Positions 36,460 to 63,823 of a DNA stretch of 64,000 nucleotides are shown here, one piece after another. A program made the translations under genes and the position numbers. The notes beneath the pieces were generated by a model. That model had not been told where the DNA came from. It did not search any database and worked only from the letters and a program-made list of their open reading frames with translations. Location: positions 24,142 to 88,141 of the forward strand of contig PMCS01000029.1 of assembly GCA_003154195.1 (NCBI GenBank). Direction: 5' to 3'. Each line of letters starts with the position of its first letter. The stretch's first letter is position 1. The DNA comes from Candidatus Omnitrophota bacterium (GTDB taxonomy: Bacteria > Omnitrophota > Gorgyraeia > Duberdicusellales > 4484-171).

Positions 36460-37278
36460 TCAGTTATTATGCGTTTGGGGAAATTCTAATTCTTCAATGC
36501 ATATCTTAAAAAGTGCGGGGTCGAAAATCTTTTTATCGTGGGCGAACCCGCAAAGCAAAACCCGGTCGCAAAGCATATTAATCAACCGCGGGATGCCGCC
36601 GGAAAACTTATAGATAACATCGTAGCTTTGCGGCATAATTTCTATGGAAGAATCGCCGGCTTTCTTGAGCCGGTGTTCGATATATTTTTTTACTTCTCCC
36701 AACCGTAAGGGAGTAAGGGTATGATGAACACAAATGCGCTGGCGTATCTGGCGCAATGAAAATTGGCTTAACTTATCGTCTAATTCCGGCTGGCCCGCCA
36801 AAACAATTTGTAAAAGCTTGCCCGCGGCCGTTTCTAAATTAGAAAGAAGCCTTATCTGTTCAAGCTGCCTTGCCCCCAAATCCTGGGCCTCGTCAACGAT
36901 GAGAACGGCATTACCGCCGACGCGATTTTGTTCGAGGAGAAAAGAATTCAGGCCTTTGACAATATCGAGCCGGCCTTTGCCTTTAATATTTAAACCAAAA
37001 TCCTCGACAATCGCTTTCAATAATTGCACTTCGCTGAAATAAGGATTCAAAATAAGGGAAGTCTTTACTTCCTGAGGCAAAACATTAAGGAAAGTCTTGC
37101 AAAGCGTGGTTTTTCCCGTCCCCACTTCACCGGTAATCAAGATAAGCCCCTTGCGCTCTTTGACACCGTAGAGCAACGCCGCTAAAGCCTCCTTATGCGA
37201 AGCGCTTTCGAAGAAAAATTGGGGGTCGCTGGTGATGTGAAAGGGAAAATTTTTTAAGCCGTAAAATTCAAGGTACAT
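36460..37278 (-). CDS. ExeA/GspA/MshM-like AAA ATPase
   Basis: LILITGEVGTGKTTLCKTFL is the Walker A and AVLIVDEAQDL the Walker B. The overall pattern matches ExeA/MshM. Confidence 0.75.
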   Translation of the reverse strand: MYLEFYGLKNFPFHITSDPQFFFESASHKEALAALLYGVKERKGLILITGEVGTGKTTLCKTFLNVLPQEVKTSLILNPYFSEVQLLKAIVEDFGLNIKGKGRLDIVKGLNSFLLEQNRVGGNAVLIVDEAQDLGARQLEQIRLLSNLETAAGKLLQIVLAGQPELDDKLSQFSLRQIRQRICVHHTLTPLRLGEVKKYIEHRLKKAGDSSIEIMPQSYDVIYKFSGGIPRLINMLCDRVLLCGFAHDKKIFDPALFKICIEELEFPQTHNN

Positions 37279-37465
37279 ATTTTAACTTGGGTTAGGGTAA
37301 TGGTAACGATGCCTGTATGGGTTATGGCTAAGGTTATGGCTTTATTCAGATTAGCCTTAACCCTTGCCCTAGCCCGAACCGGCTTTCCGCCTTCGCCAAA
37401 GGCTTCGGCGAGACTTCTCCGAAGCTCAAAGAGCGAAGGAGAGCCTAGCCTTAGCCCTGGCCGAT

Positions 37466-38857
37466 TTACTTCTGCTTCCCCTGAGCACTCTCCGGCGTAT
37501 TTTCCGACTGAGCCGCAGCAAGAATCCGTTCCGGGGTCACAATCGTCGGCGTGATAAAAATCATCAAGTTTTTCTTGTCGACGGTTTTACTTTTGTGTTT
37601 AAAAAAATACCCTAAAAGCGGAATGTCGCCTAAAAGCGGAACTTTGTTGATAGTATCGATAGTTTTATCACTGATCAACCCGGCGATGACCAATGTATTA
37701 CCGTCTTTAATCATGACTTTCGTAGAAGTACTTTGAGTATTAAGTATCGGTAATTGTACAGTGCCGGAAGTGGAGCTACTCGAAAACGCTACTTCTCCCA
37801 CTTTATCGCTTACCGTCGGTTCGAGCGTAAGCGTAATGAAGCGTTCTTTGTTTATTTGCGGCGTTACCTTAAACGTCACGCCGTAGTTAATTGTGGTAAA
37901 ACCGCTTATCGTAAGAGCCCCCTGTTGTTCGTTATAACTATAGTTGGGCACGGGATAATTGGTAAGCACATTGATACTAGCGACCTGGTTATTCAAGGTA
38001 GTAATTTTAGGCATAGAAATAATCTTAGTATTACTGTCGTTGAAAATAATTTCCAGGGTAGCGGCTAATTGCGAAGCGTCTAAGCTCCCGAATGACCACG
38101 CCCCGGTAGCCCCGGTAGTAGTAGGCACAGCCAAAAAATCGGTAGCCGTTCCCATAAATTTTCCCATCTTTTTGCTGTTGTCGTCTTGTTTAAACGGCCA
38201 TGTCATCGGCCGCTTACTGGCTGAAGCTCCTCCCACGATATTCCAATTAATACCCAGGGTGTTAGTTAATCCTAAGTCGGTTTCGAGGATCTTTGCTTCG
38301 ATTGCAACCTGCGGTGTAATTTCATCGAGCGCTTTTATCGCCTTCTCGATGTTCGGTAAATTGGATTGGACATCGATAACCACTAAAGTATTGGTCCGGG
38401 CATCGGAAATAATCCTGCCCCGGCCGGAAACCATACTCTGAATCGTATTTTTTACATCCTCGACTTTGGCAAAATTCAAACTGAAAACTTTGGAATCAAC
38501 CGGCTCAGCTACTTTCGCTTCGGCGCCTTTTTTACGTTTTTCCGCCAGATTATCCACAGTATCGACTAAAATTATATTTTTCCCCACCCACTCATAGCCG
38601 TAATTGTAAGTTCTCAGCACCGCGTCTAAGGCCGTCTGCCAATCGACATTTTCCAGGTCCACCGTAACCAGCCCCTTTATATCCGGCGCGACCAAAATAT
38701 TGACTTTACTTTCATCCTTAATCGCTTTTTGCGTAATCGCCTGCAAGACGATCCTGATATCGGCATCTTTGAATTTAAGGGTCGAGAGCACCCCTTCCTG
38801 GGCGAAGCTAACGAAACTTACCGCAAGCATCAATGCAAGAACGAATAACTTTCTCAT
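37466..38857 (-). CDS. pilQ: type IV pilus secretin PilQ (MshL-like)
   Basis: It has a signal peptide and a C-terminal secretin domain (VPLLGDIPLLGYFFKHKSKTVDKKNLMIFITPTIV). Confidence 0.85.
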   Translation of the reverse strand: MRKLFVLALMLAVSFVSFAQEGVLSTLKFKDADIRIVLQAITQKAIKDESKVNILVAPDIKGLVTVDLENVDWQTALDAVLRTYNYGYEWVGKNIILVDTVDNLAEKRKKGAEAKVAEPVDSKVFSLNFAKVEDVKNTIQSMVSGRGRIISDARTNTLVVIDVQSNLPNIEKAIKALDEITPQVAIEAKILETDLGLTNTLGINWNIVGGASASKRPMTWPFKQDDNSKKMGKFMGTATDFLAVPTTTGATGAWSFGSLDASQLAATLEIIFNDSNTKIISMPKITTLNNQVASINVLTNYPVPNYSYNEQQGALTISGFTTINYGVTFKVTPQINKERFITLTLEPTVSDKVGEVAFSSSSTSGTVQLPILNTQSTSTKVMIKDGNTLVIAGLISDKTIDTINKVPLLGDIPLLGYFFKHKSKTVDKKNLMIFITPTIVTPERILAAAQSENTPESAQGKQK

Positions 38858-38858
38858 C

Positions 38859-39242
38859 TTACCCCTCCCATTTTAAAGTAAACTCTCTGCCGTCTCTTTC
38901 TAAAATAACAGTATTCTTTTCAATCTTCTTTATTTTATATCCCTGAAAAATACCGCTTTCCTTATACATCTCATTATTGATTATCGCAACGCTTCCCTCT
39001 TGTGAATAGATTATACCTTGCAATAGAGAATCCCCCAGTTCTTTTTTTTCTTTGATCAATACTTCGCCCCGTTCGTTTACCAATGGCCGCATGGGATCGC
39101 GGTCCTTTAAAGAAGAGTAGGGGTACTTAAATTCCTGGGCATCTAAAATAAAATGAACCGCCAGTAACAAGCCCGCGATAAAAAAATATAGCGCGCACCT
39201 TTTTATCCCGTTTGAGTTGACCTTGCGTCTTTTTCCCAACAT
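38859..39242 (-). CDS. PilP-like pilus assembly lipoprotein or inner-membrane protein
   Basis: It is a small protein with one TM helix, positioned between pilO and pilQ as in canonical pilMNOPQ operons. Its stop is 2 nt before the pilQ start. Confidence 0.5.
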   Translation of the reverse strand: MLGKRRKVNSNGIKRCALYFFIAGLLLAVHFILDAQEFKYPYSSLKDRDPMRPLVNERGEVLIKEKKELGDSLLQGIIYSQEGSVAIINNEMYKESGIFQGYKIKKIEKNTVILERDGREFTLKWEG

Positions 39243-39374
39243 ATTCTACCTTCGGTTTATTATCAAAAATACCCAATGTAGTTTCAGAGTATCAAAGTAT
39301 CATAGCGTCAAAGTTGAATTCCTGTAACGCTCTGACGCTATGACGCTATGAAGCCCTGACACTCTTAGCGCATC

Positions 39375-39914
39375 TCAATCCCTCAGCAACGCCGTAAGCG
39401 AGATACTTATTTCGTGATAAGGATTAGCTGCTCTAATCGAAAGCTCTTTTACCAGAAGGGAATAAGGCCCCGTTTCAACCAGATTGAGAAACTGCCCTAA
39501 ATTATGGAAACCCGCTCTCCCTTCCATTTTTAACGGCAGATAAAAAAATTTGCTTTCGCCGATTGTTTTAGCTTCCTGCAATTTTCCCGAAACGATTTCT
39601 TGCGCGTCAAAATTAGTTTCTTTTGCTTTACTGGAAAGAAATACCGAAATCGCCGAAGTGTCGCCGGTGGAAGCGATTTTATTTTCCCGATCCGCTATTT
39701 CCTTATTTATCCTGATCTTTTCATCGAAAAGAGAAACTTCCCGTATCGCTTCCTGCTCAAAAAGATTTATTTTTTTCTTAAGGTCGCCAGCCTGGAGGTT
39801 TACCTTTATAATCTTTTGAACTTGCAGCGGTAAAACCGCCGCCAGGTCGAACAGCAAAACTATATAAAAAGAAGCGTAGACAATTGTTTTTTTATTCAGT
39901 TTTAATTTTTGCAT
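39375..39914 (-). CDS. pilO: PilO-like pilus assembly protein
   Basis: It has an N-terminal TM helix and a coiled-coil, sits third in the pilMNOPQ order and overlaps the pilN stop. Confidence 0.55.
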   Translation of the reverse strand: MQKLKLNKKTIVYASFYIVLLFDLAAVLPLQVQKIIKVNLQAGDLKKKINLFEQEAIREVSLFDEKIRINKEIADRENKIASTGDTSAISVFLSSKAKETNFDAQEIVSGKLQEAKTIGESKFFYLPLKMEGRAGFHNLGQFLNLVETGPYSLLVKELSIRAANPYHEISISLTALLRD

Positions 39915-40462
39915 TCGACCTCGAATCTCATGACTTCCGTGCCGGATAGATAATTTTTGCGGGAATTCTTTAGACTAATATTTTTAAATATCCCGGCAAA
40001 CTTCTCTTTCTTCAAATTCCGGATAAATTCTTGTATTGATGCCAGGTAATCATCTTTCCCCCGCACGGCATAGCCCACAAAATTAAAGGAATTTCCTTTA
40101 AGGTTTATTTCCTCAAGCCATATATTTTCCGGCAACGACTTAAAAAGATCCGCCAGTATCTGGGAAACGCTAATCCCCGAACCCGCCAAATTTTGATAGT
40201 CGGTTTGTTTATTTCTTAAACCATCGACCTCTTTTTTTAAAGTGCTTAACGCTTCGGATTTAGGAATCAAGCTTTTCCATTTTTTGCTTAAATCGTTGCG
40301 CGCCGATAAAGCGAAGGTTGTAAAAACAAATAAAACAATATTCAAAAGCATGACGCCGCATAATGTTAAAAATACAGCGGGCAAAAATTTCTCCAATAAA
40401 TCGATAAGCTTATCGTCCCCGTTGCCGGTATAAGGATAGAGATTAATATCTATTTTTTTCAT
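39902..40462 (-). CDS. pilN: PilN-like pilus assembly protein
   Basis: It has a short cytoplasmic N-terminus, one TM helix (FLTLCGVMLLNIVLFVFTTFAL) and a periplasmic domain. It overlaps pilM by 4 nt. Confidence 0.6.
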   Translation of the reverse strand: MKKIDINLYPYTGNGDDKLIDLLEKFLPAVFLTLCGVMLLNIVLFVFTTFALSARNDLSKKWKSLIPKSEALSTLKKEVDGLRNKQTDYQNLAGSGISVSQILADLFKSLPENIWLEEINLKGNSFNFVGYAVRGKDDYLASIQEFIRNLKKEKFAGIFKNISLKNSRKNYLSGTEVMRFEVECKN

Positions 40463-41466
40463 ACCGCCATACCTAAGCTTACCCCAAGCATCTCCTTAAA
40501 CTTCAACATTGTTTCGTCGGGATTAAAATTAGACCCTTCTAAAGGGTTCCAAATTTTTACCTCCACGCCTAAAGAATTATTCATAATCTTATCGATGCCT
40601 GGCAGTTTGGATAACCCCCCGGTCACATAAAGCGATTGAATACGGCTTCCCCAATTCACTTCAAAATAATCCAGAGAATTTTTTACTTCTTCAGAAAGCT
40701 CTAAAACCATTTCCTCGATTACTTCAATGATTTCGCTTATTTCGCCGACCGACGATTTTTCATCCGCCTGAATAATCATATTCTCCGCAGCCGCTACGTC
40801 GATATTTTTTATTTTTGCTATTCTTTGCAAAAATTCGCCGGCGGACACTTTTATCTCCCTGCTTAGACAAGGCATCCCTTTTTTGAACATATTAAAAAGA
40901 GTGGAATTAAAACCGATATCAAGCACGGCCGCCGTCGAATCCGCGAAAAACGAATTCATAAATAAATTAATCAGAGCCAGGTTGTTCAGGGTTATCGCCT
41001 TAAGATTAATCTTAGCGGCTTGAAAATCCTTTATGAGCGAATCCAAGAAACTCTTTTTCACTACCGCCAGAAGGACAAAGATTTCATGGGAAGAATAATT
41101 TTCATCTAAGACAGAAACATCAAAGTAAACATCATCCTTATTAAACGGCATAAACTTAGAGATCTCATAACCAAAAACTTCTTTGAGATTCTTTTTATCA
41201 ACCTTGGGAAAAGGAGTATATCGTATAAGCGTATCTTGCCCTTTCACGGCTAATTTAACGGGTTTATACGATAATCTTTCTTTTTCCAGCCATTCGCCAA
41301 TTATTCTTATGGGTTCGCCTTTGTTTTTTTCCGCAAGAAATTTGCAGTTATTATTTTCGTCCTTATAAATAGCCTTAATATACCCACCGCCTAAATCAAT
41401 AACTACCTTGGTAGTTTCTTCTTTTTTTAGAATTTTATTGAATATTTGTGTAAGTGTATCCAGCAT
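40459..41466 (-). CDS. pilM: type IV pilus assembly ATPase-like protein PilM (actin/FtsA fold)
   Basis: VIDLGGGYIKAIY, AVLDIGFNSTLFN and SLYVTGGLSKLPGI are the actin-like ATPase motifs of PilM. Confidence 0.8.
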   Translation of the reverse strand: MLDTLTQIFNKILKKEETTKVVIDLGGGYIKAIYKDENNNCKFLAEKNKGEPIRIIGEWLEKERLSYKPVKLAVKGQDTLIRYTPFPKVDKKNLKEVFGYEISKFMPFNKDDVYFDVSVLDENYSSHEIFVLLAVVKKSFLDSLIKDFQAAKINLKAITLNNLALINLFMNSFFADSTAAVLDIGFNSTLFNMFKKGMPCLSREIKVSAGEFLQRIAKIKNIDVAAAENMIIQADEKSSVGEISEIIEVIEEMVLELSEEVKNSLDYFEVNWGSRIQSLYVTGGLSKLPGIDKIMNNSLGVEVKIWNPLEGSNFNPDETMLKFKEMLGVSLGMAV

Positions 41467-41906: not shown

Positions 41907-42365
41907 ATGTTGAAGAGAAAAGGGTTTACGCTCGTGGAAATCATGATTGTTGTAGCGATTATTGCGCTATTAGCGGCAATCGCCATCCCCAACTTGCTGC
42001 GCGCCCGGCTTAACGCCAACGAAAGCGCGGCCATCGCAGCGATGCAGACTCTCGTAAGCTCGGCAACCAGCTTTAGGGCAGCCAACCCGCAATATCCCAC
42101 TAATTTAGGATGCCTTACTGCCGTTGCCCCCCCTTACATTGACACGCAGTTGGGATGCGCAAACGCAACTTGTTTAAAGCAAGGCTATAACTTCGCGTTG
42201 GTCGGCGCAACCAACAGCTTTACCGCTACAGCTCAACCGGAAAATACGGGAATCACCGGCGTCCGGAGTTTCTTTGTTGACTCCAGCGGCGTCATTAGAT
42301 ATTGCACGGGAACCACCGGATCACCCTGCACCGCCACCAATGCGTCGGACATTTTGAATAATTAA
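41907..42365 (+). CDS. pilA: type IV major pilin (PilA/MshA-like)
   Basis: MLKRKGFTLVEIMIVVAIIALLAAIAIPNLL shows the class III signal peptide with the G|FTLVE cleavage site and Glu+5. There are C-terminal cysteine pairs. Confidence 0.85.
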   Translation: MLKRKGFTLVEIMIVVAIIALLAAIAIPNLLRARLNANESAAIAAMQTLVSSATSFRAANPQYPTNLGCLTAVAPPYIDTQLGCANATCLKQGYNFALVGATNSFTATAQPENTGITGVRSFFVDSSGVIRYCTGTTGSPCTATNASDILNN

Positions 42366-42605: not shown

Positions 42606-43160
42606 ATGGATATCGGAAAAAAAATACGCACCCTACGAGGTAACATGAGCCAGGACGAACTGGCCCGCCGGTCCAAAGTAGACAAAGCGATCATCAGTAA
42701 AATCGAAAACGGCAAGATGAACGGCACGATTGCTTGCCACACTAAGATCGCCTCGGCCTTCGGCATGAAACTTTCGGAATTCTATGCGCATCTTGAAAAC
42801 GATAACCGTGAGCCGGCGGCATTGCATCCGGCAAATTTAAAAACTGATGTCTATCAAGATTTTCTGGAAATCCTTACCGTTATTCCTTTAGCAAAAAGGA
42901 TGCTCCCCGTTTTTATTACCGTAAAAGAAAACCAGACGCAATATCTGGAAGAAACCATTAAAAAAGTAGAACGGTTTATTATAATTTTGGAAGGCGAGGT
43001 AGAAATCGAAATAGAAGAAAAAAAATATCTCCTCGGCAAGGAAGATAAAAATGAGAAAGGCGACAGCCTTTATTCTTTAAGCCAGGGCCGGCACGCCATC
43101 AAAAATATAGGCACCGCAACAGCAAAACTTTTATGCGTCAGCGTGCCGCCAGTATTATAA
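42606..43160 (+). CDS. XRE-family HTH transcriptional regulator with a C-terminal cupin domain
   Basis: IRTLRGNMSQDELARRSKVDKAIISKIENGK is an HTH_3 motif. The C-terminal region is a beta-rich cupin-like fold. Confidence 0.75.
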   Translation: MDIGKKIRTLRGNMSQDELARRSKVDKAIISKIENGKMNGTIACHTKIASAFGMKLSEFYAHLENDNREPAALHPANLKTDVYQDFLEILTVIPLAKRMLPVFITVKENQTQYLEETIKKVERFIIILEGEVEIEIEEKKYLLGKEDKNEKGDSLYSLSQGRHAIKNIGTATAKLLCVSVPPVL

Positions 43161-43303: not shown

Positions 43304-43669
43304 ATGGAAAAGATAAAGATACTGATATGCGAAGATGAAGTGACTTCGCAAAAAGCGATAAAAAATATACTGGCCAAGAGGAAATATGAAGTTTATACGG
43401 CACAAGACGGCGAGGAAGCTTTAGGCAAAGCTAAAACATTGGGCCCGGATTTGATTATTCTCGACATCCGCATGCCTAAAATCGACGGGATTGAAGTATT
43501 GAAAGAAATTAGAAAATTTAACGCGGGAGTAAAAATAATTATCGTTACCGCTTTTCAAAGCCCTCAAATATCCCAGGAAGCCGCTAAATACAATATCTTC
43601 GATTATATCGTAAAACCTCTATCGGGAGAAAAACTGATTGAGGTTGTGGAAAAAGCCCTCCAAAGATAA
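43304..43669 (+). CDS. stand-alone response-regulator receiver domain (CheY-like)
   Basis: ILICEDEVTSQKAIKNIL...DLIILDIRMPKIDGIEVL...IIVTA...K carries the acidic pocket, the phospho-acceptor Asp and the conserved Lys. Confidence 0.8.
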   Translation: MEKIKILICEDEVTSQKAIKNILAKRKYEVYTAQDGEEALGKAKTLGPDLIILDIRMPKIDGIEVLKEIRKFNAGVKIIIVTAFQSPQISQEAAKYNIFDYIVKPLSGEKLIEVVEKALQR

Positions 43670-43884: not shown

Positions 43885-45090
43885 TTAGTGGCCGAGCATG
43901 GTGGTTATCGAAATAATCGGCAAGAACAGCGCGACCACGATCCCGCCGATCACTATTCCTAAAAATCCTATAACCAAAGGCTCGATAAGACTGGTAAGGC
44001 TGGAAATGACGGCTTCGGTTTGCTCTTCATAAAATTCGGCAATTTTAGAAAGCATTGCCTCAAGCTTGCCCGTCGTTTCTCCGACGCCGATCATCTTTAC
44101 TACCATGGGAGGAAAAACCTTGCTTTCTTCCAAGGGAACGGAAATAGGTACGCCTTCCTGTATTGATTTCTTGGCTTTTATCACCGCCTCTTCAATTACT
44201 TTATTCCCGCTGGTTTTAGCTACTATTTCTAGAGAGTTTACGATGGGGACGCCGCTACGCACCAGAGTTGCGAAAGTCCTGGCGAATTGAGCGATGCTTA
44301 TTTTTTTGATGATATCTCCGGCAATGGGCAATCTAATTAAAAATTTATGGTAGTTCATTTTGCCCCTGGGCGTGGAAACGTATTTTTTAAAAGCGACTAC
44401 GGCGATGACAAAAACTACAACCAATAACAAAAACTGCTTTCGCATTATATCGGAAAAACCCACCAGGATCTGGGTGGGAAGCGGGAGCTTTCCGCCTAAG
44501 GTCGCGAAGATGCCTTTAAAAGTCGGGATGACTTTTAAAATTAAAAAACCGGTTATCCCTATTGCCATAAGGATTACCACTGCCGGATAAGTAAGGCTGG
44601 ATATTATCTTTCTTCTAAGAGCGCTGGATTTTTCCAGATAAACGGACAAACGCTCCAGAATCTCCGGCAGATTACCCGAACTTTCCGCCGCCTCTACCAT
44701 GCTGACATATAATTCAGAAAAAATCTTCGGGTACTTGGCGATTGCCGCGGCAAAACTTGAGCCTTCGCGTAAATCTTTTAAAATTGCCGCGATAACTTTT
44801 TTAAAATAGGGGTTTTCCACTTGCTGATACAAAATATCCAAAGCGCCGACAATGGGAATACTGCTCTCGATTAACGTAGTAAGTTGGCGGGAAAAAATTA
44901 CCAGTTCATCAACCTTTACCTTTCCTTTGGTAGCCGACTTAAGTTTACCGGCTTTCGCCTCCTGTAAAGATAAAACCATATGCCTCTGGGTATGCAAAAG
45001 CTCGATGGCTTTATTCTGGGATTCCGCTTCAAGGCTGCCCTTTAAAACATGGCCGTCTTTATTACGTATGGTATAAGAAAATAAACTCAT
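43885..45090 (-). CDS. pilC: type IV pilus / type II secretion platform protein PilC/GspF (MshG-like)
   Basis: It has two T2SSF repeats and three TM segments, and ends ...FLPIISITTMLGH. Confidence 0.85.
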   Translation of the reverse strand: MSLFSYTIRNKDGHVLKGSLEAESQNKAIELLHTQRHMVLSLQEAKAGKLKSATKGKVKVDELVIFSRQLTTLIESSIPIVGALDILYQQVENPYFKKVIAAILKDLREGSSFAAAIAKYPKIFSELYVSMVEAAESSGNLPEILERLSVYLEKSSALRRKIISSLTYPAVVILMAIGITGFLILKVIPTFKGIFATLGGKLPLPTQILVGFSDIMRKQFLLLVVVFVIAVVAFKKYVSTPRGKMNYHKFLIRLPIAGDIIKKISIAQFARTFATLVRSGVPIVNSLEIVAKTSGNKVIEEAVIKAKKSIQEGVPISVPLEESKVFPPMVVKMIGVGETTGKLEAMLSKIAEFYEEQTEAVISSLTSLIEPLVIGFLGIVIGGIVVALFLPIISITTMLGH

Positions 45091-45195: not shown

Positions 45196-46890
45196 TTACC
45201 CCGCAACCCTTAACACTTCTTCCAGAGTCGTAATGCCTTCGATACATTTCTTAAACCCGTCTTCTTTTAAGGAAAGGAAACTTCTTTTCTTCCTGGCATA
45301 ATCCGTAATTTCGTCCTCCGAGTTTTTCTTTAAAATCATCGTTCTAATTGTATCATCAAACGATAAAATTTCCAAGAGGGCAATTCTTCCCCGATAACCG
45401 GTACGATTGCAAAAACTACACCCGGCCGGCCGATAAAGTTCTTCTACCGGTTCTAAATTCAACCTCTCCAGGAGCTTTTGATCCGTTTTTTCTTTAATTT
45501 TACACTTCGTGCAAAGCCTTCGGGCCAGGCGCTGCGCGGTAGTAGCAATCATCGAAGACGCCACAAGAAAAGGCTCTATCCCCATATCAACCAAACGGGT
45601 TATCGCTCCGACGGAATTATTGGTATGCAGCGTCGAAAAGATAAATTCGCCGGTCAGCGAAGCCTTGATGGCGATATCCGCAGTTTCCGCGTCCCTTATC
45701 TCGCCGACCATAATAATATCCGGGGACTGGCGCAGGACACTGCGCAGGCTTGAAGAAAAATTCAAGCCGATTTCCGGTTTTACCTGTATTTGCGTTATCC
45801 CTTCGATTTGATATTCCACCGGATCCTCAATGGTAACGATGTTTTTTTCCGCATTGTTAAGCTGGTTGATTATTGAATAAAGGGTCGTGGATTTACCGCT
45901 GCCGGTCGGCCCGGTCACCAGAATTATCCCGAACGGCGCCTCCAAAGATTCTTCGAATAATTTCTGCGGTACCGGCGAAAACCCTAAGTTTTTAATCCCC
46001 ATGGCAAGGCTTTCTTTATCAAGTATGCGCAGTACTATTTTTTCTCCGAAATTGCCGGGAAGGCTGGAAACACGAAAGTCTATTTCCCGGTTTTCGAATT
46101 TAATCTTAAACCGGCCGTCTTGAGGCACCCTGAACTCCGTAATATTTAATGAAGACATTATTTTAAGCCGGGCCAGGATACCGCCTTGATTTTTTTTGGG
46201 CAGGCTAAACCCGTGATGGAGAACTCCGTCGATGCGGTATCTCACCGATAAATCTTTTTGTGTAGGTTCAATGTGGATATCGCTTGCCCTTCTTTTCAAA
46301 CCCTCATAAATCATCAGATCTACGACTCTTACTACGGGGGGAAGTTTGCTTTCGCTGATCATCCCCTCTAAACCCTGGTCGTCCTTAAGCGAAATATCTT
46401 TTATCGCTACATCGTCGTCGTTGATATCATTTTCCTCCACGAGAGGAGCAATTGTTGTTTCCGAATACAAACTATTAAGGTACTTGGTTATTTTTTCTTC
46501 TTTGGACAAAACCAAATCAATCTTTTTAAAACCCGCGGTTATTCTAAGATCATCCAAGGTAATAACATCCAGGGGATTAGCGGTAGCGACGGTCAAAACG
46601 TCACCGATTTTAGATATCGGCAAAACTCTGTAGCGAAAGGATAATTCTTTCGACAGAAAATTTTTGTTCTCATTCGAAATACGATATTTATCCAAATCCA
46701 TATAAGGTATTTTGTATTCCCGGGATAACACAATAAGGATATCTTCTTCGCTGATGATATTATTTTTGATTAGCTTTTCTTTAAACTCACGGAAGCTAAC
46801 GGATCCCCGGTCGATTTCCCGAACCAGGTCTTCTTTTGCTTTCTTATGAGCTATGATGTAACGCACTATTCTTTCTTTTAATGATTCCAT
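45196..46890 (-). CDS. type IV pilus assembly ATPase PilB/GspE/MshE family with an N-terminal T2SSE_N (MshEN-like) domain
   Basis: VTGPTGSGKSTTL is the Walker A. The Asp box, Walker B, His box and the tetra-cysteine Zn motif (CTKC...CSFC) are present. The N-terminal 150 aa form a GSPII_E_N domain. Confidence 0.85.
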   Translation of the reverse strand: MESLKERIVRYIIAHKKAKEDLVREIDRGSVSFREFKEKLIKNNIISEEDILIVLSREYKIPYMDLDKYRISNENKNFLSKELSFRYRVLPISKIGDVLTVATANPLDVITLDDLRITAGFKKIDLVLSKEEKITKYLNSLYSETTIAPLVEENDINDDDVAIKDISLKDDQGLEGMISESKLPPVVRVVDLMIYEGLKRRASDIHIEPTQKDLSVRYRIDGVLHHGFSLPKKNQGGILARLKIMSSLNITEFRVPQDGRFKIKFENREIDFRVSSLPGNFGEKIVLRILDKESLAMGIKNLGFSPVPQKLFEESLEAPFGIILVTGPTGSGKSTTLYSIINQLNNAEKNIVTIEDPVEYQIEGITQIQVKPEIGLNFSSSLRSVLRQSPDIIMVGEIRDAETADIAIKASLTGEFIFSTLHTNNSVGAITRLVDMGIEPFLVASSMIATTAQRLARRLCTKCKIKEKTDQKLLERLNLEPVEELYRPAGCSFCNRTGYRGRIALLEILSFDDTIRTMILKKNSEDEITDYARKKRSFLSLKEDGFKKCIEGITTLEEVLRVAG

Positions 46891-47046: not shown

Positions 47047-48747
47047 TTAGCTCTCATCGCCGACCGTCGCCCTAACGACTTCTTCCAGGCTGGTCAACCC
47101 TTTTTCTACTTTCAAAATACCGTCGGACCTGAGCGTTCTCATGCCGTTGCTGATCGCTTCTCTTTTTATCGTATGCTCATCCGAATCTTCTCCTACCAAC
47201 CGGCGTAACGACGAATCCATATGCAAATATTCGATTAACGCTACTCTTCCTTTATACCCGGTCTGATAGCAGAATTTACAACCCCGGGGTTTATAAACAA
47301 CGGCATCGTTTTTTATCTTATATTTTACCCTTGCCGCATCATCCAGGTTATTGGTTTCTCTGCATTTCGGGCAAAGCCGTCGCACCAGGCGCTGGGCTAA
47401 AACTCCAATCAACGTTGAAGAAAGCAAAAACGGTTCAACTCCCATATTGATCAAGCGCGTAATCGAACCGCAGGCAGTAGTCGTATGCAGAGTCGATAAA
47501 ACAAGATGGCCGGTCAATGCCGCTTTTATCGCGATATCCACGGTATCAAAATCGCGGATTTCTCCCACCATAATGATATCGGGATCCTGACGTAAAATAG
47601 AACGCAAGGCGGCGGGAAAAGTAAGCTCAACTTCATAATTCACATTAACCTGGTTTATACCTTCAATCTGATATTCGATAGGATCCTCTACCGTAATGAT
47701 GTTCTTTTCCGGCGAATAAATGTGGCGTAAAATTGAATATAAAGTCGTGGTTTTGCCGCAGCCGGTAGGGCCGCAGGCAAGAATCATGCCGAAGCTTGAC
47801 GTAGCATCGCCTTTGATTCTATCCGCGGTATCGCTTTCAAAACCTAATAGGTTTATATCTAAAAGCCCGGCGGATTTATCGAGAATCCTTAAAACTATTT
47901 TTTCGCCGAGGGTAGAAGGTAGAATAGAAACGCGGAAATCGATGTCGTTGCCGAAAATATTCATCCGGAAACGGCCGTCCTGAGGCAACCGGTGTTCGGT
48001 AATATTTAAATTAGCGATAACTTTAATGCGCGAAATAACAAAAGTGTGCATTTTTTTAGGAAACGCCTGCGCCTGGCGCAGCACTCCGTCAATACGATAG
48101 CGAACCCTTGAGCTATTGCCTAACGGTTCGATTAAAATATCCGAGGCTTTCTCTTCTACCGCTTTTTTTAAAATATAATTGGTGAGCTTTATAATCGGAG
48201 CTTCTTCGATGGAGCGTAAAATCTCTTCGTCTTTTACTTCTTCTTTTTCTTCGTTAATAATCTCTATGGAAGCCTGGTCTGAATCTTTTATAATTTCGTC
48301 AATGGCGTTGGCCAAAGATTCTTTGTAGTGGACATCAAATACCTGCTGCAATTCTGAACGCGAAGCGATAACCGGCGATATTTGGCAGCCGGTTATCCTT
48401 TCTAAATCTTCAAAAATTAAAACATTTAAAGGGTCGGTAACGGCAACCGTAAGGACATTGCCGATTTTGCCTACCGGTAATACCATATACTTTTTCGCGA
48501 TTGCCTTGGGGATAAGATTAAGTATTTCGGGAGCGACTTTGATGTTTGATACTTTTATAGGAGGTATGGCTAAATAGGTAGAAAGAAAAATCATTAAATC
48601 TTTTTCATCGATATAGCCTGAATTTATAAGAAGCTCGCTGAAGGAGCCTCCTTTTTGAGCATGAACCTTGTAAACATCATCAAGGCGCTCTTGAGTTATT
48701 AATCCTTTATCTACTAAAAGTTTGGTAAAATTTTTTACTTCGTCCAT
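47047..48747 (-). CDS. second PilB/GspE/MshE-family ATPase, tandem paralog
   Basis: ACGPTGCGKTTTL is the Walker A. A CPKC...CKFC Zn motif and an N-terminal GSPII_E_N domain are present. The ATPase core is about 50% identical to the adjacent paralog. Confidence 0.85.
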   Translation of the reverse strand: MDEVKNFTKLLVDKGLITQERLDDVYKVHAQKGGSFSELLINSGYIDEKDLMIFLSTYLAIPPIKVSNIKVAPEILNLIPKAIAKKYMVLPVGKIGNVLTVAVTDPLNVLIFEDLERITGCQISPVIASRSELQQVFDVHYKESLANAIDEIIKDSDQASIEIINEEKEEVKDEEILRSIEEAPIIKLTNYILKKAVEEKASDILIEPLGNSSRVRYRIDGVLRQAQAFPKKMHTFVISRIKVIANLNITEHRLPQDGRFRMNIFGNDIDFRVSILPSTLGEKIVLRILDKSAGLLDINLLGFESDTADRIKGDATSSFGMILACGPTGCGKTTTLYSILRHIYSPEKNIITVEDPIEYQIEGINQVNVNYEVELTFPAALRSILRQDPDIIMVGEIRDFDTVDIAIKAALTGHLVLSTLHTTTACGSITRLINMGVEPFLLSSTLIGVLAQRLVRRLCPKCRETNNLDDAARVKYKIKNDAVVYKPRGCKFCYQTGYKGRVALIEYLHMDSSLRRLVGEDSDEHTIKREAISNGMRTLRSDGILKVEKGLTSLEEVVRATVGDES

Positions 48748-48874
48748 AATTTATTTTTTACTTCGTAAAAAATAAATTTATCCCTTTAATCATCTAACCT
48801 AAAATGCAACTACTTAAAGGGATAAACTTATTTTTCGCAATAATTGCGAAACAATTTGAAAGCGAAAAATAAGT

Positions 48875-49318
48875 TTATTTGTAGCATCGCTTTATCGCGT
48901 TACGTATATCGGAAGCGGTACCGACAAATACGTGTATGTCTAAAGAAGTAATATCTTCCAGATCTTCCAGCGCTTCCGCGTTTAAAGGATTAGCCATCGC
49001 CACAGTAAGGGCGTTGCCGATCTTATCAATGGGAATAAAACAATAATGCTGAGCTACGCTGGCCGGAACAAGTTTTAAAACTTCTTCGGAAATTTCGCAA
49101 TTTTCTAACGGCAGGTAAGGAAACCCGTATTGGAAGGAAATACACTGGGCGATCTCTTCTTCATTGGCGAAGTTCAATTTAACAATAATCTCGCCGATCA
49201 TCCCGCCGGTATTCATCTGAATCGTCAAAGCTTCCTTGAGCTGCTCGGGGCCGATGATGCCCCTATCCACGAGGATTTCGCCCAATAATTTTTCGGTTTT
49301 CTTTTTATTAAATCTCAT
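48875..49318 (-). CDS. stand-alone T2SSE_N / MshEN-domain protein (putative c-di-GMP-binding module)
   Basis: LLGEILVDRGIIGPEQLKEALTIQMNTGGMIGEIIVKLNFANEEEIAQCISFQYGFPYLPLENCEISEEVLKLVPASVAQHYCFIPIDKIGNALTVAMANPLNAEALEDLEDITSLDIHVFVGTASDIRNAIKRCY matches the MshEN-type GSPII_E N-terminal domain across its full length. The start was chosen at the ATG at 49318, which has an AAGGAA ribosome-binding site. The track ORF is longer. Confidence 0.6.
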   Translation of the reverse strand: MRFNKKKTEKLLGEILVDRGIIGPEQLKEALTIQMNTGGMIGEIIVKLNFANEEEIAQCISFQYGFPYLPLENCEISEEVLKLVPASVAQHYCFIPIDKIGNALTVAMANPLNAEALEDLEDITSLDIHVFVGTASDIRNAIKRCYK

Positions 49319-49546
49319 ATAAAAAAATTCCTTAACCTCAGTCATTCCGCGCATCGACGGAATTTTTTTATCTATTTTGTCCGCCACAAATAATAAATTA
49401 TTTAGGCGGATCAGCCTTCGGCGGAAAAACCTTCGGTTTTTTCGCCAACGACGAGACTTCGCCAAAAGTTGGAAACTTTTGGCGAGCAAACTTTCCCCTT
49501 GTAAAAATATTCTACTTCCGGCGGCGCGCTTTGCGCTTGCAGTCGG

Positions 49547-50890
49547 CTAAGCCTCATTAAGATGCGACTGGATTCGTTCGAAAAGTTGATCGGGAGTCGT
49601 ACCATCAATGGGGTTTTCCGCGACGGCAAAAGAAAAACGCACTGGTAATTTTTCGCTGTCCTTGAAAGAATCCGACAGCGCTTCCTTCAACTGCGTTCCG
49701 ATATAATGGCTTTGCCTCTTGCTTCTTTCAATCAGGATGACGCCGATTTTATTTTCTTGTATACGGCCTAAGATATCAATCGGCCTTATGTTATTTTTGA
49801 ATATACTAACCGCCTTTTTCAAAATCCTCTCCAGCTCAATCATGCCAAACTTATGTTCATAATCCATACCATTGGTAATTTCTATTACCAAAAAAGCGCA
49901 CGGTCTTTGATAAATCGAAGCCCGGTTTATTTCTTCCTGAAGGCGCACGAAGAAAAATTTCTCATTATATATGCCGGTTAAAGGATCTTTTATTTCTAGA
50001 TCCTCTACTCTTTTGGCAAGAAGCTGGTGTTCCCAGATAATACCGGTATTTCTGGCGAATAACTCTATGATTTGGCAGTCCTCGTCGGAAAAAGCAAAAT
50101 CATCGTCGCGATTACCGGCAATTATAAATCCGATGACTCTATCCCGCAAAGATACGGGATTGACGATAATATTCTTGGCATTAATAATATTTTGCAAGAA
50201 AATTATAGAATCCGCTTTATGTTTTTTATCGATGATTTGCCGTTCTTTTATTTTTAAAAAATTTGCGAATTCGCCGCTTTCAAGCAATTGGCGGGCATTG
50301 CTTAAATTTATCCCGTGCAAAAATATATCATAATTATCGCCGGAGTATTTTTTGATCAGGGTAATCGCCGCTCCGGCTCCGATAATGCCTTTCAGCCGCT
50401 CCGTTAAAAACTGCAGGATTTCTTCCAACGGACCGCCTTTGGAAAATAAAATATTGGCCTGGAGAATAGTCGAAAAAACATTAACTTTTTGCGTAATCGC
50501 CTTATTTAATTCTTCAGTCCTATGGCTTACTTCTTTAAGCTCCTCCACGCTTTCTTTCACCTTGGAAGAAAGCGTGCTAAAAATAAGGTCCAGCCTTTCT
50601 ACTTCATTTTTTACGTAATTTTCGGACCCAATAGCTTCCATTGAATCGACTATTCTGCTGGATTTATTGTGGATTCGTAAAATAGAAAAGAAAACATCGA
50701 AAATAAACCACCAACCGATAAGAGCAAGAGATACCACAATAAAGATTACCGAACCGGTTATGGGAAAAAGATTAGTCAAATAGTGGAAAATCAACGCGGC
50801 CGGAAAAAACGTGGTAAAGGCAAAAGCAAGCCAGAGCCGGCTTTTTAAACTTATTTTGCTTAAGGAAGACTTTTTCTCGGTTGTTTTCAT
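49547..50890 (-). CDS. membrane-anchored sensor with a degenerate GGDEF-like C-terminal domain
   Basis: It has two N-terminal TM helices, a central GAF/PAS-like region and a C-terminal region with the GGDEF fold outline (DPLTGIYNEKFF...AFLVIEI...ILGRIQENKIGVIL). The GG(D/E)EF motif is replaced by RIQENK and the DxD-type metal site is absent, so it is probably catalytically inactive. Confidence 0.55.
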   Translation of the reverse strand: MKTTEKKSSLSKISLKSRLWLAFAFTTFFPAALIFHYLTNLFPITGSVIFIVVSLALIGWWFIFDVFFSILRIHNKSSRIVDSMEAIGSENYVKNEVERLDLIFSTLSSKVKESVEELKEVSHRTEELNKAITQKVNVFSTILQANILFSKGGPLEEILQFLTERLKGIIGAGAAITLIKKYSGDNYDIFLHGINLSNARQLLESGEFANFLKIKERQIIDKKHKADSIIFLQNIINAKNIIVNPVSLRDRVIGFIIAGNRDDDFAFSDEDCQIIELFARNTGIIWEHQLLAKRVEDLEIKDPLTGIYNEKFFFVRLQEEINRASIYQRPCAFLVIEITNGMDYEHKFGMIELERILKKAVSIFKNNIRPIDILGRIQENKIGVILIERSKRQSHYIGTQLKEALSDSFKDSEKLPVRFSFAVAENPIDGTTPDQLFERIQSHLNEA

Positions 50891-51050: not shown

Positions 51051-51632
51051 TCATGATGCCTTCGGCCGCCTGGGCGGATTTACCATCTCGATCATGCTTT
51101 TGATAAATTCTTTTTCGACGGATACTAATTTAAAATGGTGTTCCAAAAGAAGGGTATTTTTGGAAGAACTCTTGAGTTTCTGTTGTTTATTGAGCAGCCA
51201 CTTTTTTACTTTTTCAAGAAACATCAGGCGAAACCGAAGCGCCGTCGACATTTCTTTTTTATTGATAAAATGAGAAAAATAGAGCGCGATATCCGACTCG
51301 ATAAACGGCCTTGCCTGCGAAAGCAAAGTCTGTTTACATAACTTCAAAAATTCTTTTTCGCCATGGGTAGTTATCGAATAAACGTACTTTTTTGCGTTTT
51401 TCCCTTGTGTTTCTTTTTTGCGGACCAAACCCTCTTTTTTCATCTGGTTAAGAGGGTAATATATGGACTTATTTTCTAAACCGAAAAAAACGCCCAGTTC
51501 GTCTTGTATATATTTCTTAATATCGTAACCGGACGATGGTTTTTCTTTTAAACTACCTAATATGATAAGTCTTTGAATCATCCAGTGACCCTTCGCTAAC
51601 GCTTCAGGGCAATCCCTTGCGGGAAAATTCAA
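51051..51632 (-). CDS. PadR-family transcriptional regulator
   Basis: LIILGSLKEKPSSGYDIKKYIQDELGVFFGLENKSIYYPLNQMKKEGLV is a PadR winged HTH. The true start is probably the internal MIQRL at about 51584. Confidence 0.7.
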   Translation of the reverse strand: MNFPARDCPEALAKGHWMIQRLIILGSLKEKPSSGYDIKKYIQDELGVFFGLENKSIYYPLNQMKKEGLVRKKETQGKNAKKYVYSITTHGEKEFLKLCKQTLLSQARPFIESDIALYFSHFINKKEMSTALRFRLMFLEKVKKWLLNKQQKLKSSSKNTLLLEHHFKLVSVEKEFIKSMIEMVNPPRRPKAS

Positions 51633-61671: not shown

Positions 61672-63393
61672 TTAACTTTCCGCCTTTAATCTCGCGACAA
61701 AATCCGCGACGCTCATCACCCCTATATTTTCCATCCCCCGCCGGCGGATAGATACGGTTTTATTTTCTTTTTCTTTCTTGCCGATAACAACCATATAGGG
61801 TATTTTAAGCATCTCTTTCTCTCTTATTTTTTTCTGTAAAGTTTCTCCGCTTAAATCAAGTTCTACCCGGAAATTATCTTTCTCTAAGATACTCTTGACC
61901 GCAGCGGCATAATCGGCTACTTCGGCCGTAATATTTAAAATACTGATCTGCACCGGAGCAAGCCAGAGAGGAAATCTTCCGGCGTAATGCTCGATAAGAA
62001 CACCCATGAACCGTTCCAGCGACCCCAGCAAAGCCCGGTGAATCATATACGGCTGTTTGTGCGTGTTGTCGGAATCATTATAGGAGAGTTCGAATAGTTT
62101 CGGCAAATTGAAATCGAATTGTATCGTAGAACACTGCCATTCACGGTCAAGGGCATCTTTAATCTTAATGTCTATCTTGGGCCCGTAAAACGCCCCTCCG
62201 CCTTCATCCATTTCGCATTCGAGGTTCTCGGCCTTAACCGCTTCTTGCAGCGCCGCGGTAGCTTCTTTCCATTGCGTCTCGTCCCCGACAAATTTTTCTT
62301 TTGGCTTTGTCGCCAGGTAAACTTTAAAAGACTCGAAGCCGAAAGATTTCAACATGAATAAACAAAATTTAAGTACATTGCGTATTTCCCCGGGCATCTG
62401 GTCCGGCCGGCAGATAATGTGCGCGTCATCCTGGGTAAAGCCCCGCACGCGCAGCAGGCCATGCAATACGCCGCTTTTTTCATACCGGTAAACCGTACCC
62501 AGCTCCGCCCAACGCAAAGGCAGCTCGCGATAAGAATGAGCGTGCTTCTTATACATCATAAGATGAAAAGGACAATTCATCGGTTTAACAAAATATTCCT
62601 GTTTATCGATTTCCATCGGCGCGTACATATTTTCCCTGTAAAAATCAAGATGGCCACTGGTCTGCCAGAGGCCGGCACGGCCCAGATGTGGCGTATAAAC
62701 AATTTCATAGCCGTTTTTATAATGCTGCTGGCGCCAAAAATCCTCGATGATCGTGCGCAGCCTGCCGCCTTTAGGATGCCAGAGGATCAAACCCGGGCCG
62801 ACATCTTCACAGACCGAATACAAATCCAGCTCCTGCCCAAGTTTGCGATGGTCGCGTTTTTTTGCCTCTTCTAATATTTTCAGGTAATTTTCCAATTCCT
62901 CTTTGCTGGGGAATGCCGTTCCGTAAATACGGACCAGCTGGGGATTGGAATCGATACCCCGCCAATAGGCTCCTGATGTTGAGAGAATCTTAAAATATTT
63001 GACTTCACCCGTTGACCCCACATGCGGTCCCCGGCAAAGATCGGTAAAATCGGCATGCCGGTAAATCGATACGACTGGCGTATTTAAACCTTTTATCAAC
63101 TCTACTTTATATTTTTCGCCTGCTTTTTCGAATAAGGCAATTGCCCCGCCGGAACTTATTTCTTCACGTTGAAAAGGCGAATTTTCGGCGACGATATCCC
63201 GCATGAGCTTTTCTATCTTTGCCAAATCATCTTCCTTAAAACCTCCGGCTATTTCGAAATCATAGTAGAATCCATTCTCGATCGCCGGCCCAATCCCGAG
63301 CTTCGCCTGGGGATAGAGCCGCTTCACGGCGCTGGCCATGATATGGGAACAGGAATGCCGTAAAATTTCTAACGAAAATTTATTACTTTCCAT
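61672..63393 (-). CDS. thrS: threonine--tRNA ligase lacking the N-terminal TGS domain
   Basis: RHSCSHIMASAVKRL starts in the N2 editing-domain HxxxH region. Class II motifs are FYGPKIDIKIKDALDREWQCSTIQFDFNLP and HRALLGSLERFMGVLIEH, followed by an anticodon-binding domain. At 573 aa it is shorter than the usual roughly 640. Confidence 0.9.
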   Translation of the reverse strand: MESNKFSLEILRHSCSHIMASAVKRLYPQAKLGIGPAIENGFYYDFEIAGGFKEDDLAKIEKLMRDIVAENSPFQREEISSGGAIALFEKAGEKYKVELIKGLNTPVVSIYRHADFTDLCRGPHVGSTGEVKYFKILSTSGAYWRGIDSNPQLVRIYGTAFPSKEELENYLKILEEAKKRDHRKLGQELDLYSVCEDVGPGLILWHPKGGRLRTIIEDFWRQQHYKNGYEIVYTPHLGRAGLWQTSGHLDFYRENMYAPMEIDKQEYFVKPMNCPFHLMMYKKHAHSYRELPLRWAELGTVYRYEKSGVLHGLLRVRGFTQDDAHIICRPDQMPGEIRNVLKFCLFMLKSFGFESFKVYLATKPKEKFVGDETQWKEATAALQEAVKAENLECEMDEGGGAFYGPKIDIKIKDALDREWQCSTIQFDFNLPKLFELSYNDSDNTHKQPYMIHRALLGSLERFMGVLIEHYAGRFPLWLAPVQISILNITAEVADYAAAVKSILEKDNFRVELDLSGETLQKKIREKEMLKIPYMVVIGKKEKENKTVSIRRRGMENIGVMSVADFVARLKAES

Positions 63394-63823
63394 AAAATTC
63401 TTTAATCGCTTTTTGTAAATTGGAACGTGTCGCTACCACAAGCTTTATGCTGCAACCGGCTACGCTTTCTAAATTACCGATTAATTCGAAATCAGTGGGG
63501 TCAAACACGGCTACCGTCAATGATGATAAATCACGGCAAAGCGCCAGCGCATTGCGCCGCGCGGCAAATTCATAGGGGATAAGCTCTTCTAAATTTTCCT
63601 CGGGGATAGGATATAAACGGTTATCTTCCGGACGGATAAAGGCAAGGTTATATTCGCGGCTTAAAAATCCGGCGATCACCTCTTCTTTAACATGGCCGTA
63701 ATCAACCATTAACTCAATAATACTTTTGCGTTCCTTTTTTTGCGCTTGCGTGATTTCTTCCAGCTGCGCTTGCGTGATTAAACGTTCCTGGAGAAGTCTA
63801 TTTTCCAAACGGCTTAGTGTCAT
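63383..63823 (-). CDS. second stand-alone T2SSE_N / MshEN-domain protein
   Basis: LLQERLITQAQLEEITQAQKKERKSIIELMVDYGHVKEEVIAGFLSREYNLAFIRPEDNRLYPIPEENLEELIPYEFAARRNALALCRDLSSLTVAVFDPTDFELIGNLESVAGCSIKLVVATRSNLQKAIKEFYG matches the MshEN-type GSPII_E N-terminal domain across its full length. It overlaps thrS by 11 nt. Confidence 0.6.
   Translation of the reverse strand: MTLSRLENRLLQERLITQAQLEEITQAQKKERKSIIELMVDYGHVKEEVIAGFLSREYNLAFIRPEDNRLYPIPEENLEELIPYEFAARRNALALCRDLSSLTVAVFDPTDFELIGNLESVAGCSIKLVVATRSNLQKAIKEFYGK

Follow-up and report, generated by a model that had tools for sequence, protein, structure and literature searches.

In Vibrio cholerae MshE and Thermus PilF, a receptor domain for cyclic dimeric guanosine monophosphate (c-di-GMP) is fused to an ATPase linked to type IV pilus extension. 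The ligand site of such MshEN domains is the N-terminal 53 residues, made up of two 24-residue motifs and a 5-residue spacer, with the pattern RLGxx(L/V/I)(L/V/I)xxG(L/V/I)(L/V/I)xxxxLxxxLxxQ in each half-site (PMC5013675). The present study concerns a free-standing protein of this type, here called MshEN-A, which is encoded between a degenerate GGDEF protein and two PilB paralogues (PilB1 and PilB2) in a 64,000-nucleotide stretch of Candidatus Omnitrophota DNA (contig PMCS01000029.1). The whole of this stretch is referred to as the window, and all positions are counted in it. The motifs for ligand binding in MshEN-A and its gene neighbourhood suggest a trans-acting c-di-GMP receptor, a role that the N-domains of the two ATPases appear to have lost the means to play themselves.

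The consensus was widened to (R/K/L)LG.. by a crystallographic and isothermal titration calorimetry study of Thermus PilF, in which the GSPII-B domain has Lys and Leu at position 1 and binds c-di-GMP with a dissociation constant of 6 nM, the GSPII-C domain is a binder with Pro at that position, and hydrophobic replacements were proposed to predict very high affinity (PMC11731258). At position 3, the backbone amide of the glycine (Gly3) contacts the guanine Hoogsteen edge; G11L in V. cholerae MshE left no detectable c-di-GMP binding (Supplementary Table), and the glycine is the one residue held fixed even in the relaxed pattern of Wang et al. (PMC5013675).

Two further systems are close to the one described here. 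PA3740 of Pseudomonas aeruginosa carries MshEN_N and a divergent T2SSE_N1 subdomain but no ATPase, binds c-di-GMP and affects swarming (PMC5013675, Supplementary Table 4); it occurs in beta- and gamma-proteobacteria and its C-subdomain is highly diverged (Wang et al., PMC5013675). In the FimX-PilZ-PilB system of Xanthomonas and Pseudomonas (PDB 7LKM-7LKQ), c-di-GMP input reaches in trans a PilB whose N-domain does not bind the ligand (PMC8389850). A sequence-only reading of this stretch had presented free MshEN modules acting on pilus ATPases as a new regulatory layout, which was an overstatement given that a free-standing MshEN binder and a trans input to PilB were both already known.

The Omnitrophota are uncultured, mostly ultra-small bacteria. 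Type IVa pili occur in nearly all of them and are believed to serve in attaching to hosts or prey (PMC10066038). In the principal genomics paper on the phylum, these pili are treated without mention of c-di-GMP or PilB (PMC10066038), no free MshEN protein is among the PilB cofactors listed in a 2024 review (PMC11656802), and no description of the regulation of Omnitrophota pili was found in the literature searched. The cassette reported below combines known parts in a way that has not been described before, and this arrangement is conserved throughout the phylum.

Identity of MshEN-A and its c-di-GMP motif

The sequence-only reading held that two open reading frames of the window each encode nothing but an MshEN domain, and the search with the Pfam profile bore this out for both copies. 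MshEN-A (48875..49318, minus strand, 147 aa) matched the MshEN family (PF05157) at 6e-22 with 77.9 bits against a cut-off of 23.1, and MshEN-B (63383..63823, minus strand, 146 aa), a paralogue dealt with separately below, matched at 5.9e-14. Extension of the MshEN-A frame as far as the TTG at 49489 would give 204 aa; the ATG at 49318 is favoured as the start because the 338 MshEN-A homologues are almost uniformly 145-153 aa in length.

Frames of the MshEN-A and MshEN-B types are 31-36% identical to the N-termini of PilB1 and PilB2 and carry the Joint Genome Institute annotation 'PilB', a resemblance that would fit N-terminal fragments of split or pseudogenised GspE/PilB genes. Such fragments would hardly keep a constant length of 145-153 aa across hundreds of genomes, nor be better conserved than true PilB N-domains, and the mean column identity of MshEN-A is 64%, compared with 50% for the PilB1 and 36% for the PilB2 N-domain. 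Moreover, the genes downstream are complete, being a 566-aa PilB with its own N-domain in one case and thrS in the other. A split or decayed gene was ruled out on these grounds, and its probability is put close to nil. For MshEN-A, with its half-sites intact and PilB1 whole, the two findings that the sequence-only reading had named as fatal to its proposal, namely missing motif residues or a split gene, were both absent.

The Pfam MshEN model spans the C-terminal subdomain only, and the c-di-GMP motifs of MshEN-A occupy residues 11-63. Motif 1 (residues 11-34) reads LLGEILVDRGIIGPEQLKEALTIQ and motif 2 (residues 40-63) reads MIGEIIVKLNFANEEEIAQCISFQ, with MNTGG as the spacer between them. In 119 protein homologues and in 82 genomic orthologues, the two half-sites keep their register exactly across a spacer of five residues. 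Amongst the latter, Leu2 is kept in 100% of first and 96% of second motifs, Gly3 in 100% of both and Gln24 in 99% and 100%, respectively, and the hydrophobic positions 17 and 21 are conserved in at least 98%. Of the 11 key positions in each motif, the window copy agrees at all 11 in the first and at 9 in the second; the mean for the family is 20.2 of 22. Only position 1 departs systematically from the MshE motif: it is Arg in MshE, whereas in the MshEN-A family motif 1 has Pro, Leu, His or Gln there and motif 2 has Leu. None of the window's four MshEN domains was matched by the strict or the relaxed regular expression of Wang et al., position 1 being other than R, K, P or N, and the extended consensus (PMC11731258) was used in their place. 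By that standard both half-sites of MshEN-A read as intact, in the window copy and in the family as a whole. On the NCBIfam c-di-GMP_motif model (NF053729), MshEN-A scored 60.7 bits against a cut-off of 38, and all 83 of 83 orthologues passed at E<=1e-9.

The AlphaFold2 model of MshEN-A has a mean predicted confidence (pLDDT) of 91 and places helices at residues 12-18, 24-37, 41-47 and 53-64, followed by an alpha/beta unit. It shows the two-subdomain MshEN fold, that is, an N-terminal four-helix bundle and an alpha/beta T2SSE_N1 subdomain, and its top Foldseek match is the V. cholerae MshEN domain in complex with c-di-GMP (5HTL; TM-score 0.82-0.86, root-mean-square deviation 2.1 Å). Taking MshE (5HTL) and Thermus PilF GSPII-B/C (8PDK) together, the fold is shared at TM-scores of 0.74-0.86, as are the 24+5+24 motif (Gly3, the Leu cluster and Gln24) and the link to a type IV pilus extension ATPase. 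The domain is fused to the ATPase in MshE and PilF, whereas MshEN-A is a separate polypeptide and the ATPases at this locus keep an N-domain without Gly3.

Loss of motif residues in the N-domains of PilB1 and PilB2

PilB1 (47047..48747, minus strand, 566 aa) and PilB2 (45196..46890, minus strand, 564 aa) are PilB/GspE-type ATPases, matching Pfam T2SSE at 3e-133 and 8e-129, respectively, and each has its own N-terminal MshEN domain. In the window, the two Gly3 positions are T and S in PilB1 and V and K in PilB2, and Gln24 of PilB1 is replaced by H and Y; the PilB2 domain is the more degenerate of the two and has no match to NF053729. The same holds across genomes. For PilB1 orthologues (n=68), Gly3 is found in 1% of first and 4% of second motifs and Gln24 in 76% and 0%; for PilB2 orthologues (n=58), the figures are 0% and 7% for Gly3 and 38% and 10% for Gln24. 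Gly3 is therefore lost from each half-site in at least 93% of genomes in PilB1 and PilB2 N-domains alike, and at the level of individual residues both domains appear to have lost their own c-di-GMP site. NF053729 was dropped as a means of telling binders from non-binders, as it passes MshEN-A and many PilB N-domains, and residue-level scoring was used instead.

XpsE, GSPII-A and, judged by their residues, the paralogues at this locus are examples of non-binding MshEN domains. Since non-binders keep the fold but lose the motif residues, retention of these residues in MshEN-A points to upkeep of a ligand site rather than of the fold. The contrary explanation is that MshEN-A is a ligand-independent accessory or decoy, a free N1-type domain that occupies or bridges the docking site of PilB on PilM, PilC or GspL-like partners and keeps its motif for the fold or a protein interface. 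The MshEN_C subdomain of MshEN-A is indeed highly conserved, including an invariant block PIDKIGN..T.AMANPLN. Among the structural matches of MshEN-A are GspE N1 domains, which bind GspL, and the PilB N-domain of X. citri, a binder of PilZ; by sequence, the nearest PDB entry is the non-binding GSPII-A domain of PilF. Nevertheless, XpsE, GSPII-A, MshEN-B, PilB1 and PilB2 have all kept the fold while losing exactly the motif residues, and the fold alone leaves unexplained the near-100% conservation of Gly3, Leu2, Leu17, Leu21 and Gln24 in both half-sites of MshEN-A. A ligand-independent role of this kind is on balance unlikely.

Conservation of the gene cassette

Homologous loci were collected by a pattern scan of one genome per species, which gave at least 600 candidate stretches, at least 574 of them encoding a relative; the best 80 were kept. 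Nearly all of these 80 are from metagenome-assembled genomes (MAGs) of Omnitrophota, and the complete genome of Ca. Velamenicoccus archaeovorus LiM is included. Open reading frames were called in a synteny set of 82 non-redundant, species-level loci and matched to the window proteins. The recurring order is the degenerate GGDEF protein, MshEN-A, PilB1, PilB2, then a REC-HD-GYP protein or a further free MshEN protein, followed by PilC, pilin and PilM.

The expected co-occurrence with PilB was clear, a PilB gene lying directly 3' of MshEN-A in 65 of the 66 loci with enough downstream sequence. On the upstream side (75 assessable loci), the GGDEF-type gene was adjacent in 62, one gene removed in eight and not detected in five. 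The median distance between its stop codon and the start of MshEN-A is 4 nucleotides; the distance is 20 nucleotides or less in 52 of 64 pairs and becomes an overlap in 18 of the 64. MshEN-A and PilB1 are set apart by a median of 38 nucleotides, and by more than 100 nucleotides in ten of 66 loci.

This tighter coupling on the upstream side would suit a c-di-GMP unit of the GGDEF-type protein and MshEN-A that serves some other target, be it transcription via the PadR, REC or XRE proteins, a different system for secretion or adhesion, or the giant Omnitrophota surface proteins, with its place beside pilB owed to operon hitch-hiking. Conserved PadR and REC genes lie upstream in this clade, and a wide variety of outputs is known to be coupled to MshEN domains. 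Set against this, PilB follows directly in those 65 of 66 loci across deep divergence (MshEN-A identity 51-73%), and the pair stays with PilB1-PilB2-PilC where all of the upstream neighbours differ. The cassette order is constant whether it is preceded by MreBCD-PBP2-RodA, as in locus L004, or by YkuD-AccA-PadR, as in the window. A target other than PilB is accordingly held to be quite improbable. The order YkuD-AccA-PadR-(REC)-GGDEF was found in many loci; a REC gene lies directly upstream of the GGDEF-type gene in about 15 related loci.

Some loci show variations on the cassette. In the eight loci where the GGDEF-type gene is one gene removed (L039, L042, L049, L051, L056, L066, L070 and L075), the intervening gene encodes a PilT-like ATPase of about 355-397 aa with a T2SSE domain and no MshEN domain. 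Three loci (L004:12184-12642, L058:14181-14642 and L061:12249-12716) encode a further free MshEN protein between PilB2 and PilC; these are 39-40% identical to MshEN-A, have intact motifs and fill the slot held elsewhere by REC-HD-GYP. A complete cassette was also present on a contig (L037, JAIWAR010000006.1) binned in a 'Methanosarcinales archaeon' MAG, probably through contamination of the bin, a circumstance of some note since Velamenicoccus has been described as a predator.

The degenerate GGDEF protein

The gene upstream of MshEN-A (49547..50890, minus strand) encodes a 447-aa protein with Pfam matches to GGDEF (8e-16) and GAF. Two membrane helices are predicted at its N-terminus, and behind them come a long coiled coil, a GAF domain and a GGDEF domain that is degenerate; the AlphaFold2 model (pLDDT 83.6) has helices at residues 15-39, 46-86 and 96-150, followed by the GAF and GGDEF folds. 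The 'membrane sensor' of the sequence-only reading has these predicted membrane helices, but the model contains no periplasmic domain. In distant orthologues, the coiled coil is a recognizable HAMP domain.

In the active-site alignment, the protein has RPID-ILGRI-QENKI where cyclases carry RxxD-x5-GG(D/E)EF, and in the region that corresponds to D-x-D..FK..ND..GH..GD (IEITNGMDYEHKFGMIELE) the metal- and substrate-binding motifs are gone. GG[DE]EF was found in none of the 69 orthologues. With these residues the protein cannot act as a cyclase, and its proposed non-catalytic nature stands. The suggestion that it might instead be a receptor fared less evenly. RPID (residues 369-372) lies at the position of the RxxD inhibitory site (I-site), five residues before the active site (A-site), and is nearly invariant in the subfamily of the window protein, making c-di-GMP binding there plausible for this clade. 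Over the whole set, RxxD is kept in 35 of 69 orthologues, and with 34 of 69 lacking it I-site binding cannot be the universal role of the family. The common denominator is a membrane scaffold or a signal input via GAF/HAMP.

PelD of P. aeruginosa has a transmembrane-GAF-degenerate GGDEF architecture, binds c-di-GMP at an RxxD I-site and activates Pel synthesis. The protein described here resembles it in the membrane anchor, the GAF domain, a GGDEF domain devoid of an A-site and RxxD five residues upstream, but it belongs to a pilus operon instead of a pel operon, and only about half of its orthologues have RxxD. Membership of the PelD family proper was considered and dropped, there being no Pfam PelD_GGDEF match and no PelD chain in the top 50 Foldseek matches; the likeness is retained as an architectural analogy. 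Its best structural matches in the PDB are ordinary GAF-GGDEF cyclases.

Indications of c-di-GMP signalling

An RpfG-like REC-HD-GYP gene lies between PilB2 and PilC in 12 related loci (L043, L048, L053-L055, L060, L067, L071, L076, L077, L079 and L084), that of Ca. Velamenicoccus archaeovorus included, and its HDxGK and HHExxDGxGYP motifs are intact. A canonical RYGGDEF cyclase (Pfam 129 bits) is encoded 8 kb upstream of the cassette in locus L029, and PilZ and GGDEF proteins have been reported in Omnitrophota (10.1101/2023.11.21.568195). Neither an EAL nor a PilZ domain turned up in those proteins of the locus that were scanned.

The ligand might in principle be another nucleotide such as 3'3'-cyclic GMP-AMP (3'3'-cGAMP), and position 1 is non-canonical in both half-sites of MshEN-A. 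V. cholerae MshEN binds cGAMP too (PMC5013675). Yet an in-operon HD-GYP phosphodiesterase and partners of the GGDEF type point to c-di-GMP, and Leu or Pro at position 1 occurs in confirmed c-di-GMP binders, so that a different nucleotide is considered very improbable.

Proposed mechanism and its weighing

In the scheme favoured here, MshEN-A would bind one c-di-GMP in its N-terminal four-helix bundle, and the degenerate GGDEF protein may also bind c-di-GMP at the RxxD I-site in this clade, as PelD does. Once liganded, MshEN-A would act on PilB1 and PilB2 or on their docking site on PilM/PilC, probably while the GGDEF-type protein keeps it at the membrane, with the outcome that pilus extension is gated. 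MshEN-A would thereby supply in trans the c-di-GMP input that appears to have been lost from the ATPases' own N-domains. Ligand binding, the protein-protein contacts and the direction of regulation are the inferred parts of this scheme. A trans-acting receptor had been proposed for both free MshEN proteins; it is plausible for MshEN-A and for that copy only.

Several observations weigh against this scheme. Motif 2 of the window copy is looser than that of the family, in that position 1 is Met, Gly10 is replaced by Asn and the Leu residues at 17 and 21 by Ile, and the best PDB sequence match of MshEN-A is the non-binding domain named above. At E<=1e-9, NF053729 also matches 56 of 69 PilB1 and 24 of 59 PilB2 N-domains, and the PilB1 N-domain of the window scores 35.8-38.4 bits, that is, at the cut-off of 38; the model thus fails to part the classes, and the case for loss of binding in the PilB proteins is carried by Gly3 and Gln24 alone. 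The absence of RxxD from nearly half of the GGDEF-type orthologues belongs here too, as does a hairpin-rich spacer of 228 nucleotides (49319-49546) that parts the GGDEF-type gene from MshEN-A in this genome. Finally, a regular-expression search and comparison of 20 further open reading frames with Pfam found no cyclase in the window, and likewise no EAL or HD-GYP phosphodiesterase, so that c-di-GMP synthesis in this organism draws its support only from related genomes and the literature. Taking both sides together, the scheme as a whole, in which MshEN-A and the GGDEF-type protein gate PilB1 and PilB2 through c-di-GMP, is judged to have an even chance of being correct.

The FimX-PilZ-PilB system offers the nearest functional parallel. 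The signal passes there through a small adaptor on the PilB N-domain and a degenerate GGDEF-containing receptor, as it would here, and 7LKM is among the fold matches of the MshEN-A model. The receptor there is an EAL domain and the adaptor has a PilZ fold, whereas the candidate receptor here is an MshEN paralogue, with an RxxD I-site in addition in some clades; the relationship is one of functional analogy only. PA3740 and MshEN-A are alike in being free-standing MshEN-type proteins without an enzymatic domain. MshEN-A differs in its canonical and very conserved C-subdomain and in its fixed place between the GGDEF-type gene and PilB. Free MshEN proteins with intact motifs are common in metagenomes.

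A broader proposition, advanced tentatively and with less confidence than the scheme itself, is that throughout the phylum c-di-GMP sensing may have moved from PilB to a free MshEN adaptor and a catalytically dead membrane GAF-GGDEF scaffold, which would license one or both PilB paralogues. This would be a third independently evolved wiring, after the cis-acting MshEN domain and FimX-PilZ, and the pili under its control would be those with which ultra-small predators or parasites attach. If the favoured scheme holds, an MshEN receptor can serve as a detachable adaptor for a PilB lacking its own site, and the repertoire of PilB cofactors would widen. Genome-based receptor censuses would also become sharper, in that many 'PilB' annotations here would be 147-aa receptors and many true PilB N-domains probably non-binders. 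The conserved three-part cassette is a testable handle on the regulation of Omnitrophota pili and is small enough for heterologous expression.

MshEN-B, a separate paralogue linked to thrS

The second free-standing copy had been placed next to the pilus ATPases and regarded as a c-di-GMP receptor like the first; the placement is wrong and the receptor role was not borne out. MshEN-B lies 14.5 kb from the ATPases, overlaps the start of thrS and is 27% identical to MshEN-A. Its half-sites, RLENRLLQERLITQAQLEEITQAQ and SIIELMVDYGHVKEEVIAGFLSRE (RLENRLL..AQ and SIIELMV..RE), have E and I for Gly3 in motifs 1 and 2, respectively, R for Gly10 in motif 1 and E for Gln24 in motif 2, so the 24-residue motif that is conserved in MshEN-A is not conserved here. 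While the protein satisfies the fold-level Pfam model, its score on NF053729 is 31.3 bits, below the cut-off.

A word-based search returned two close homologues of MshEN-B, and a full HMMER search gave 3008 relatives at E<=1e-3. The nearest free-standing relatives (48% and 44% identity) carry the same motif substitutions, and its closest relatives P0195, P0197, P0202, P0203 and P0207 show these Gly3/Gln24 losses as well. The genes for a small membrane protein, for MshEN-B and for thrS form, in that order, a triad that the two nearest (L086 and L087) share with the window. The start and stop codons of the triad overlap; it covers 61672-63823 and continues to the window edge, where the C-terminus of the small membrane protein is encoded (63823-64000). 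Neither motif nor gene context gave evidence tying MshEN-B to the pilus or to c-di-GMP, and it is probably not a c-di-GMP receptor and not part of the pilus module. The degenerate protein is instead coupled to the thrS-infC-rpmI-rplT-pheST cluster.

Surrounding genes and intergenic repeats

The window holds an Omnitrophota version of a type IVa pilus operon, headed by the pair of the degenerate GGDEF protein and MshEN-A before the two PilB paralogues. From 35.9 to 55.5 kb all genes are on the minus strand, the exceptions being those for the pilin, the XRE-cupin regulator and the REC protein. PilB2 is followed, in a conserved position, by a PilC/GspF platform protein (43885..45090, minus strand; Pfam T2SSF 3.8e-62). 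The CheY-like receiver and XRE-cupin regulator that had been read from the sequence on this side of the locus were confirmed by Pfam as a single-domain REC protein (43304..43669, plus strand; Response_reg 8e-32) and an XRE-family helix-turn-helix and cupin protein (42606..43160, plus strand; HTH_3 and Cupin_2). Next to them is a type IV pilin with an N-methylation motif (41907..42365, plus strand; N_methyl 1.6e-8). At the other end, a PadR-family regulator (51051..51632, minus strand; PadR 3e-11) is the conserved upstream neighbour of the GGDEF-type gene in this clade.

The remaining pilus genes, all on the minus strand, encode PilM (40459-41466; NCBIfam pilM match), a PilN-like protein (39902-40462), a PilO-like protein (39375-39914), a small T2SSB/GspC-like protein (38859-39242; Pfam T2SSB), a secretin (37466-38857; NCBIfam PilQ match) and an ExeA/MshM-like AAA ATPase (36460-37278), which scored 283 bits on TIGR03015 (pepcterm_ATPase), under the cut-off of 324.5. 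The gene order from PilM to the ExeA/MshM-like ATPase (36460..41466) recurs in related loci. The ATPase and the T2SSB/GspC-like protein give this type IVa machine a flavour of the mannose-sensitive haemagglutinin pilus or of a type II secretion system.

Two of the intergenic regions of the cassette contain repeats. The spacer at 49319-49546 consists of short modules that form hairpins, such as TCGCCAAAAGTT/AACTTTTGGCGA and GGCGGAAAAACC/GGTTTTTTCGCC, and that recur at 54081-54222, 60665-60713 and 734-751, in each case intergenic and just 3' of minus-strand genes; it looks like a dispersed repeat, similar to repetitive extragenic palindromes or terminators, inserted into the operon. The spacer between MshEN-A and PilB1 (48748-48878) has nested AT-rich inverted repeats built on ATAAACTTATTTTT, with arms of 22 nucleotides at 95% complementarity, 17 nucleotides at 100% and 14 nucleotides at 100%, which could be a regulator-binding site or an RNA structure. 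Scans for promoter and terminator consensus sequences over 43-52 kb gave counts at the level of shuffled sequence.

Farther from the pilus genes, a 1312-aa open reading frame on the minus strand (756-4694) had no Pfam match at E<=1e-5. A phage-type integrase (15580-16905; Phage_integrase with a SAM-like N-domain) adjoins the stretch (16000-20000) with the lowest GC content in the window's first half, 0.385-0.40, and this may be an integrated element.

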